Positions 40,873 to 41,830 of a stretch of DNA of 64,000 nucleotides are shown piece after piece. The stretch is from Escherichia coli (GTDB taxonomy: Bacteria; Pseudomonadota; Gammaproteobacteria; Enterobacterales; Enterobacteriaceae): the NCBI RefSeq assembly GCF_016026235.1, contig NZ_CP065613.1; one strand, 5' to 3'. The stretch's first letter is position 1; each line of letters begins with the position of its first letter. The translations under genes were made by a program, and so were the position numbers. The notes below the pieces were generated by a model. That model was not told the DNA's origin and ran no database searches. It was given only the letters and a program-made list of their open reading frames with translations.

Positions 40873-41371
40873 TGACCCGTATCGTGCTGAACGTTGCCAC
40901 CCTATGATGCGATTAAAAAAACTCACCGTCGAGCCGATGATTGACGTCAATGCTATCGGATGATGCCGGGGGTGTTCCGGAAGGAATTCCTTGTTTCCCG
41001 AACTGTTACCAACAAAATTATAACGATGAGCAAGTAAAGACCGGTTGGTGGCAGTACTGACCGGTCTGTGATGGAAGATTAATTTCACCTTAAATCCTGG
41101 TGCTGTTAGGATGCTGACGTTTTTCGGCTACACCATTCAGATTATGCAAATAAATATCCCTGAATATAATATATTCATAGCACCCATAACTCATCCTGGG
41201 CGATAACTAAACCATTTTTGAGTAACAAATGAAACAACTGCAACGCTCTTATTATTTCTGGAAAACGTCTCGCAAAAACAAAACAACATGCAAAAATCCG
41301 CTTTCGTTAATTAATTTTCCGTCGTAATTTTCGCACATACATTAATGAGTAATATATGTAAGAGGGTGGCA

Positions 41372-41590
41372 ATGGCGATGAATACGGTTTTTCTTCATTT
41401 ATCAGAAGAGGCAATTAAACGGCTGAACAAGCTTCGGGGCTGGCGTAAGGTTTCACGATCTGCAATTTTACGCGAAGCGGTAGAGCAATATCTGGAACGT
41501 CAGCAATTCCCGGTGCGTAAAGCAAAGGGAGGCAGGCAAAAGGGGGAGGTAGTTGGTGTTGATGATCAGTGTAAGGAGCATAAGGAATGA
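41372..41590 (+). CDS. yiiE: ribbon-helix-helix (CopG/Arc/MetJ-type) DNA-binding protein YiiE
   Basis: ORF 41345..41590; start taken at MAMNTVFLHLSEEAIKRL; RHH-like N-terminus; paralogous to yiiF. Confidence 0.8.
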   Translation: MAMNTVFLHLSEEAIKRLNKLRGWRKVSRSAILREAVEQYLERQQFPVRKAKGGRQKGEVVGVDDQCKEHKE

Positions 41591-41830
41591 CAAAAATTTT
41601 TCATTCTTGAATATAAAAAACAGATGCCCTTATTCTGGTATTAATACAAGGCTGTTTTACTTGAACTTATAATAACTGCAACTGTTACATCATATCTGGA
41701 AAACGCCTCGCAAAAATAAAAAATGATGCGTAAATGAGCTTTCTTTAAAGATTCGACAAGGGTACTTTTCTCTCCATAGATATCAAATGATATTGGTCAA
41801 ATATTTATGAACTCTCTGGCAGGTATTGAT

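Follow-up and report, generated by a model that had tools for sequence, protein, structure and literature searches.

The DNA repeated upstream of yiiE and yiiF in Escherichia coli is probably a CRP-S promoter element of a toxin-antitoxin-type locus

Introduction

Which signal turns on the two small genes yiiE and yiiF of Escherichia coli, and why is the DNA in front of them repeated? The question is raised by a 64,000-nt stretch of E. coli DNA (NCBI RefSeq assembly GCF_016026235.1, contig NZ_CP065613.1; hereafter the window), in which these tandem genes, both encoding ribbon-helix-helix (RHH) proteins, are each preceded by a copy of the same 78-nt module. RHH antitoxins repress their own promoters, and the N-terminal strand of RHH proteins carries the base contacts. 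An earlier note on this DNA had described a duplicated gene-plus-operator unit, with the conserved core of the module as a candidate autoregulatory operator or shared promoter.

This work indicates that the element is most likely the CRP-S promoter of a toxin-antitoxin-type operon, in a new or little-noticed instance, and that a private RHH operator is an unlikely role for the core. CRP-S sites are understood as 22-bp targets of cyclic AMP (cAMP)-CRP at which, by virtue of their sequence, activation requires Sxy (TfoX), a competence co-activator. The repeat, the motif match, the conservation pattern, the hexamer spacing and the vapBC synteny presented here come from sequence analysis; the properties of CRP-S sites, the precedent of the hicAB operon and a transcription start in Klebsiella were taken from literature.

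Results

Repeated module

A direct-repeat search of the window returned one repeat family, with two 78-nt copies that align without gaps at 77% identity and are spaced 438 nt apart (Table 1). This identity was reached by 0/10,000 shuffles. The core of the module, TCTGGAAAACGYCTCGCAAAAA, occurs exactly twice in the 64 kb with at most three mismatches (41257-41278 and 41695-41716), where 0 occurrences are expected. The earlier note had placed both modules at essentially these coordinates and at a similar distance from each start codon, and it was right on both counts: the site centre lies 105.5 nt upstream of the yiiE ATG (41372) and 102.5 nt upstream of the yiiF ATG (41807). In the pairwise alignment, the similarity extends past the A-runs, since the invariant portion of the module is TGGAA...CTCGCA. 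Between the two units, identity amounts to 77% in the module and 91% in the core 22-mer; it drops to 58-61% for the coding sequences, 51-52% for the non-coding flanks and 43% at third codon positions. The repeat is real, conserved and functional-looking.

E. coli genomes carry a median of two and a maximum of four module copies, every one of them at the yiiE/yiiF locus, and a genome-wide repeat or a mobile-element end was rejected on that ground. Matches on plasmids turned out to be chromosomes carrying the wrong label. No likeness of the module to insertion sequence (IS) ends or to attC, dif or hix sites survived inspection.

Agreement with the CRP-S motif

The E. coli CRP-S motif, 5'-TGCGA-N6-TTCCA-3' (Sinha 2009, as quoted by Sondberg 2019, PMC6728893), is described there as asymmetric and functional in either orientation. 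Its reverse complement, TGGAA-N6-TCGCA, is exactly the core, with 10/10 specified positions matched in both copies. These read TGGAA-aacgtc-TCGCA and TGGAA-aacgcc-TCGCA, two 5-bp half-sites at a 6-bp spacing. In the yiiE copy the half-sites occupy 41259-41263 and 41270-41274, and the minus strand reads TGCGAGACGTTTTCCA. The 64-kb window holds two matches to the motif (0.2 expected), both of them module cores.

Known CRP-S sites of E. coli K-12 (NC_000913.3) were aligned with the two cores, namely those of ppdD (ttcTTCGTaacgccTCGCAaat), comEA/ybaV (atcCTGAAgccgccTCGCAaaa) and the experimentally validated site of sxy (tttCGGAAagagccTCGCAaat). The spacer and proximal half of the yiiF site, aacgccTCGCAaa, are the same as in the ppdD site. 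In Enterobacteriaceae, any CRP-S half-site without C6 carries G6, never T6 (Cameron & Redfield 2006), a rule that both yiiE and yiiF sites obey with their half-sites TCGCA and TGGAA. Replacement of T6 by C6 or G6 lowers CRP affinity about 80-fold and makes sites Sxy-dependent (Cameron & Redfield 2006; PMC6728893).

The 10/10 match is found in 29/36 fetched chromosomal loci (L001-L036), and each orthologous locus with a match has a single one, at the core. Among 35 related loci from species-representative genomes, 30 carry the core about 110 nt before the start of vapB, the ortholog of yiiF, as an island of about 22 nt; these sites read ttcTGGAAagcggcTCGCAaaa. The core also precedes a higB-like/nadS cassette. 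About 30 species contribute 38 distinct sequences, in which positions 2, 4-9, 14-19 and 21-22 hold 1.7-2 bits of information, the spacer positions 10-13 hold 0.5-1.3 bits and the upstream flank less than 0.5 bits. In the core-anchored alignment, upstream conservation falls to background within a few bases, and the positions that vary between species fall in the N6 spacer. Constrained half-sites around a free spacer are what CRP-S footprinting looks for, and the layout of two 5-bp half-sites with a 6-bp spacer and the C or G at position 6/17 are likewise present.

A further CRP-S-like 22-mer, tttTGAAAaacgccTCGCCga, lies at 40439-40460 (+), within the 3' part of a 614-aa open reading frame (ORF) upstream of yiiE. 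It agrees with the yiiF and ppdD sites in the spacer and in most of the proximal half, and may be either a chance occurrence or a decayed site.

Promoter geometry

In 36/38 distinct sequences, a TAnnnT hexamer starts 68 or 69 nt past position 1 of the site, i.e. 57.5-58.5 nt below its centre. This fixed offset spans all three cassette types despite unrelated surrounding sequence: the hexamer reads TAATTT at yiiE, TACTTT, TATGTT, TAGATT or TAAATT at yiiF/vapB and TAAGCT at nadS. The K-12 sxy promoter has TAAGTT, 1 nt more distant. Reading the hexamer as a -10 element puts the CRP-S centre near -70 (about -70.5 for yiiE), which suggests a class-I position. A scan and inspection by eye gave no acceptable sigma-70 -35/-10 pair inside the core on either strand.

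A second conserved element, TGnTATACT, follows 29 nt below the hexamer. In Klebsiella pneumoniae, a transcription start was mapped 4 nt before the yiiF ATG, 7 nt after TATACT (Kim et al. 2012, supplementary file 5). Around this start lie short TGATATA/GTATATA repeats, which reach over the proximal -10 and into the start codon; they are likely the VapB operator.

Proposed regulation

The CRP-S motif match, the hexamer geometry and the hicAB-type precedent together lead us to propose, as the probable reading, that the core serves a Sxy/cAMP-CRP-dependent distal promoter, P1, above an autoregulated promoter, P2, in front of each gene. The site would be oriented as TGGAA-N6-TCGCA, with the TGCGA-type half proximal to the gene, and would serve a class-I P1 whose TAnnnT -10 starts about 58 nt below the centre, placing the site near -70. 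P2, start-proximal and downstream of P1, would probably be repressed by the encoded RHH protein. At high Sxy and cAMP, yiiE and yiiF, and elsewhere vapBC and higB-like/nadS, would be turned on along with the DNA-uptake genes, with their own autoregulation retained at P2 in a layout like that of E. coli hicAB. We infer the binding of CRP and Sxy, the start of P1 and the repression at P2. The yiiF unit of E. coli is decaying: with vapC gone and the P2/Shine-Dalgarno region degraded, the system may in part be vestigial.

Several observations weigh against this proposal. Three enterobacterial vapBC loci (L020, L033 and L034) have no core. The distal half TGGAA has A instead of G at the CRP-contacted position 7, yet this is the published consensus there. 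The sole mapped start (Klebsiella, four reads) belongs to P2 and not to the proposed P1, and the site centre lies at -99.5 from it, off the usual class-I helical register; CRP-S sites of Haemophilus influenzae fall at around -62, -73 and -100 (Cameron & Redfield 2006). Moreover, sxy is hardly expressed in laboratory E. coli. The K-12 region is bound by H-NS and responds to SlyA, and the yiiD-yiiE spacer has a peak of RpoS holoenzyme in systematic evolution of ligands by exponential enrichment (SELEX) (Shimada 2017), so inputs besides CRP and Sxy exist. Among the accessible papers none ties yiiE, yiiF or vapB to Sxy or CRP-S; the list of Sxy-induced units of Sinha 2009 lies outside that scope, and yiiE and yiiF may already be among those units.

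Genes of the locus

The genes of the locus run in the order 614-aa islet ORF, yiiE, yiiF, an IS3-family element and fdhE, and the window is 99.7% identical to the chromosome of E. coli FDAARGOS_943. As the earlier note had recognized, yiiE and yiiF are tandem RHH paralogs, with 42% identity between their proteins (BLASTP, E 7e-13). YiiF scores 19.2 bits against Pfam RHH_1, just below the cut-off of 20.5, and matches the Shigella YiiF structure 2k5j nearly residue for residue (131.8 bits, E 3e-38) and the Klebsiella 'CopG family' protein 7by2 over its full length (94 bits). Among the sampled loci yiiE was seen in Escherichia alone and is therefore a lineage-specific duplicate, an Escherichia-specific paralog of yiiF. 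E. coli-type yiiE/yiiF DNA also turned up in an 807-bp contig of Bacillus coahuilensis m4-4 (L002) and a 2.7-kb contig of an uncultured Robinsoniella (L005), with protein identities of 100% and 87%; both are most likely assembly contamination.

In Citrobacter, Salmonella diarizonae, Klebsiella, Kluyvera, Trabulsiella, Franconibacter and others, the locus consists of the yiiF ortholog, an overlapping PIN-domain gene of 124-135 aa (PIN E 5e-18) and fdhE, preceded by fabY and an alpha/beta hydrolase gene on the opposite strand. In Trabulsiella, the hydrolase gene is absent and the core is kept. Since its orthologs adjoin a PIN-domain gene, yiiF is a VapB antitoxin gene, one that lost its VapC toxin. 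What is left of vapC in the window corresponds to residues 105-126 of Salmonella VapC (59% identity, E 2e-4 in a tblastn against the local stretch); it sits just before the end of fdhE, cut off from yiiF by the IS element. Membership of a VapBC pair would take an RHH gene directly before an intact PIN gene, and only this 22-codon remnant remains, which makes yiiF an orphan antitoxin gene and not part of a complete system. The structures of K. pneumoniae VapB (PDB 7by2/7by3) and Shigella YiiF (PDB 2k5j) both align with YiiF over its full length, at 94 and 132 bits. The Klebsiella protein is the ortholog, encoded at this same locus with a PIN protein next after it, whereas E. coli yiiF lost its toxin partner; the structures are uninformative about the upstream module.

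Other E. coli, Pseudocitrobacter and K. spallanzanii carry an extra upstream cassette that encodes a 103-aa RelE/HigB-like protein and the helix-turn-helix (HTH) protein NadS. In the window, the islet stands in place of the hydrolase gene and this cassette, with its third site copy, of other E. coli. No link between the genes and the upstream 614-aa ORF, which the earlier note had called SopB-like and thought conceivably connected, was found. This ORF (38853-40697, +) has no Pfam match at E < 0.01, is split by IS1 or annotated piecewise in related genomes, with one piece labeled 'transposase', and survives in K-12-like strains as about 39 codons from its 5' end.

Table 1. Features of the yiiE/yiiF locus, in coordinates of the window
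Feature	Coordinates	Strand	Basis
Module copy 1, before yiiE	41233..41310	+	Direct repeat search, reference copy
Module copy 2, before yiiF	41671..41748	+	Direct repeat search, 77% identity with copy 1
22-bp CRP-S-type site before yiiE, ttcTGGAAaacgtcTCGCAaaa	41256..41277	+	Exact match to TGCGA-N6-TTCCA
22-bp CRP-S-type site before yiiF, atcTGGAAaacgccTCGCAaaa	41694..41715	+	Exact motif match, aligned with known sites
Putative P1 -10 of yiiE, TAATTT	41325..41330	+	Conserved offset; predicted start near 41337
Putative P1 -10 of yiiF, TACTTT	41763..41768	+	Aligned with GTAATTTTC of the yiiE copy; predicted start near 41775
Candidate P2 -10 of yiiE, TAATAT	41350..41355	+	Sequence inspection; TAnnnT at offset 94
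Palindrome CATTAATG adjoining the candidate yiiE P2	41340-41347		Palindrome search
Decayed vapB proximal promoter/operator, TGATATTGGTCAAATATTT in E. coli, TGATATACTGGAGGTATATAT in orthologs	41788..41806	+	Comparison with 20+ orthologous loci
yiiE, 72-aa RHH protein (CopG family)	41372..41590	+	RefSeq annotation of near-identical genomes; Pfam RHH_1 E 1e-11
yiiF, 80-aa RHH protein, orphan VapB antitoxin	41807..42049	+	PDB 2k5j, 7by2; orthologs followed by PIN-domain VapC
vapC remnant, last ~22 codons	43708..43758	+	tblastn with Salmonella VapC
IS3-family element (IS1397-like), context only	42150..43507	-	ORFs, annotation of related genomes

Discussion

Related systems

The closest precedent is the E. 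coli hicAB operon, which according to Turnbull & Gerdes 2017, as cited in PMC6957337 and PMC11594946, has a P1 with a CRP-S site that is activated by Sxy and a P2 near the start codon that is repressed by HicB. Shared with hicAB are the toxin-antitoxin type of the operon and the putative distal CRP-S site combined with a second promoter beside the start codon. The genes differ, as the units studied here are VapB-type RHH/PIN pairs with the antitoxin first, or orphan RHH genes, and not HicA/HicB; furthermore, three units stand in tandem at one locus, with P1 and its control postulated. The dual-promoter arrangement may have its counterpart in the Klebsiella start 4 nt before the ATG and in the conserved TGnTATACT flanked by repeats, with repression at P2 presumed. 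The published CRP-S site of hicA was not confidently recognized in its sequence, where a TGGAA half-site alone was noted.

Over-expression of Sxy also induces chpSB, higBA and hokD, and the upstream regions of K-12 higB, chpS and hicA contain TGGAA or TGCGA half-sites. Upstream of higB (L078, 5456) a symmetric site, ttcTGGAAtcgcgcTTCCAtaa, was observed. The region upstream of chpS (L079, 4448) has the palindromic TGCGAgacgacTCGCA and, on the other strand, TGGAAagcggcTCGGA, the latter with a spacer identical to that of vapB-type sites.

The sxy site, tttCGGAAagagccTCGCAaat, and the nadS-type copy, atcTGGAAagcgccTCGCAaat, have the same orientation, with the conserved half proximal. A TAnnTT hexamer follows at about 59 nt, and both regions have, upstream, the LexA box of a divergent gene. 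The sites of the present locus fit the consensus better (TGGAA, compared with CGGAA in sxy), and the downstream genes are unrelated. With the CRP-S sites of the competence genes ppdD and comEA (ybaV) (Cameron & Redfield 2006; Sinha 2009) they share a proximal half, aacgccTCGCAaa or gccgccTCGCAaaa, and a T-rich 5' flank. These two genes, in contrast, belong to the DNA-uptake machinery, their site-to-ATG distance is 136-140 nt versus 102-132 nt here, and no TAnnnT hexamer was seen at the corresponding offset. Outside the Enterobacteriaceae, the toxTA operon of H. influenzae (HI0660/HI0659) is a competence-regulated toxin-antitoxin operon with a CRP-S promoter (PMC6957337). Its toxin-first pair of a RelE/HigB-like and an HTH protein resembles the higB-like/nadS cassette, which in other E. 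coli comes with the third site copy. It differs in the palindromic form of Pasteurellaceae sites, and the likeness is drawn from the type of gene pair, for a cassette that is absent from the window.

Alternative explanations

An autoregulatory operator for YiiE and YiiF, duplicated with its gene, would explain why each RHH gene is accompanied by a module, but we consider it very unlikely. The core is asymmetric, without inverted or direct sub-repeats, and it precedes the RelE/HigB-like and NadS cassette, which encodes no RHH protein. The presumed DNA-reading strands of YiiE and YiiF (NTVFLHL and GRIILDL) differ at 5/7 positions and the cores at only 2/22. The core also lies about 100 nt above the mapped Klebsiella start and matches the CRP-S motif at 10/10 positions. 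RHH operators are expected as cognate-specific repeats overlapping the core promoter; the core has no such arrangement, and better candidates are the TGATATA/GTATATA repeats (TGATATAC...GTATATA in orthologs) over the proximal -10 and the start codon. From the duplicated unit of the earlier note, the paralogs with upstream DNA more constrained than their coding sequences remain and the operator falls away, whereas its other option, a shared promoter, comes near the mark. A small chance is left for another factor that binds the core, either a different activator or cAMP-CRP without Sxy, because conservation alone does not name the protein and SlyA and H-NS act on yiiE. However, flanks and spacer share in the likeness to the CRP-S motif and three known sites, and C6/G6 for T6 is the feature of Sxy dependence. 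The SlyA consensus, TTAGCAAGCTAA, is absent.

The TGG-N9-TCGCA of the core gives the GG-N10-GC spacing of a sigma-54 (-24/-12) promoter, with a variable middle and conserved ends, and some sites bound by sigma-54 contain TGGAAC or TCGC. Scored with a matrix built from 135 sites of chromatin immunoprecipitation sequencing (ChIP-seq) (Bonocora 2015), the cores nevertheless reach 4.7-8.9 bits, against 6.7 (minimum), 10.0 (5th percentile) and 14.4 (median) among bound sites, and 0.03%-0.3% of window positions score equally high. As the yiiE/yiiF site is also absent from the tables and supplements of Bonocora 2015 and no gene for an enhancer-binding protein is nearby, a sigma-54 promoter was rejected and strikes us as scarcely credible. 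As a control, the matrix recovers glnAp2 (TTGGCACAGATTTCGCT at 15938, -) and a site internal to fdoI (CTGGCGCGAATTCTGCA at 45190, -), which are OS37 and IS47 of Bonocora 2015. Equally scarce is the chance that a small ORF across the core, or an RNA with a structure or a regulatory role, underlies the conservation. A 32-codon ORF does cover the yiiE copy (41229-41327), and the core-to-start-codon distance is nearly constant at 134 +/- 1 nt. Fixed promoter geometry accounts for this spacing. In 39 sequences none of the three frames over the core combines a start codon with a consistently open reading; stops occur directly upstream in many, and indels move the ATG between frames. RNAalifold gave 0 conserved pairs for 19 sequences, and Rfam gave no relevant match. 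That the core is mainly a recombination or cassette-junction sequence, where toxin-antitoxin cassettes come and go, without any regulatory role, is likewise very improbable. Genera with and without the higB-like/nadS cassette lose homology exactly at the cores, the Escherichia whittamii locus described below has hybrid flanks within one core and a yiiF deletion right after CTCGC, and copies inside one genome share lineage-specific bases, such as TTATGG in both K. spallanzanii copies. Direct repeats of whatever origin favour deletions, though, and the element is conserved even where it is single-copy, recurs as a known regulatory site at the unlinked, non-mobile ppdD, comEA and sxy, and keeps a -10-like hexamer at a fixed distance. 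An integrase or att site was rejected, as no recombinase gene is associated and no inverted core-type repeats or other core-type symmetry were found, even though cassette boundaries coincide with cores.

Cassette dynamics and wider occurrence

A regulatory role as CRP-S sites would go together with a second effect of the repeats. In E. whittamii (L003, 2318-2537 and 2758-2977), one core joins a nadS-type left flank to a yiiE-type right flank, which points to deletion of a cassette by recombination between sites. The first core of this species has CCGGAA in place of CTGGAA, and the deletion of yiiF starts directly after CTCGC in its core. Evidently, deletions also use the repeated sites as substrates, which we regard as a by-product of the repeats rather than their function.

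Perfect cores were also seen in viral contigs. In seven prophage-like contigs of 12-15 kb (L053, L055, L057, L063, L069, L070 and L071), CTGGAAAGCGCCTCGCAAAA (e.g. L055, 13613-13632) is found at the 3' end of a SymE-like gene (115 aa), with a RhuM-like gene (345 aa) about 95 nt downstream. The same perfect core occurs in L043, L045, L046, L048, L060 and L052. Where it adjoins SRAP/YedK genes, a GGTGCGCACC palindrome precedes it and GGGGCA repeats follow; in L060, it is separated by about 170 nt from a fragment of tRNA-Leu at the end of a prophage, and in L052 it lies in a divergent intergenic region above genes that include a terminase-small-subunit-like gene. The 33 core matches in viral contigs are near a rough chance estimate, yet families of them share extended context.

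In most genera the CRP-S site has a hydrolase gene (Abhydrolase_3, minus strand) as its neighbour, and a canonical LexA box, CTGTATG(A/G)AT(A/G)TACAG, is located 16 nt upstream of the start of this gene (L001, about 3212-3227; also L006, L016 and L024; comparison site L073, 2944-2959). On the basis of this box, the alpha/beta hydrolase looks SOS-regulated. A LexA box with a divergent CRP-S promoter is also the layout of the K-12 sulA-sxy intergenic region.

More speculatively, and with a rather low chance of being right, the CRP-S promoter might be a portable front end of mobile toxin-antitoxin cassettes and prophage accessory genes, of which up to three units would be stacked between fabY and fdhE and gained or lost via recombination between sites. 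If this were true, the Sxy regulon of Enterobacteriaceae would consist to a substantial degree of mobile stress and defence cassettes beside SOS-controlled genes, and not of DNA uptake only.

Significance

In E. coli K-12, yiiE and yiiF (b3889/b3890) are still catalogued as uncharacterized regulators, and the present proposal would give them an input, Sxy together with cAMP-CRP. It would place decayed toxin-antitoxin genes in the competence regulon and not under a private operator. Competence-linked control of toxin-antitoxin genes, as for hicAB, higBA, chpSB and H. influenzae toxTA, would thereby extend to a vapBC locus of many enterobacterial genera, including the Klebsiella pair with a solved structure. 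Studies of how Sxy alters the site preference of CRP would, in addition, gain useful natural templates in the three near-consensus sites.

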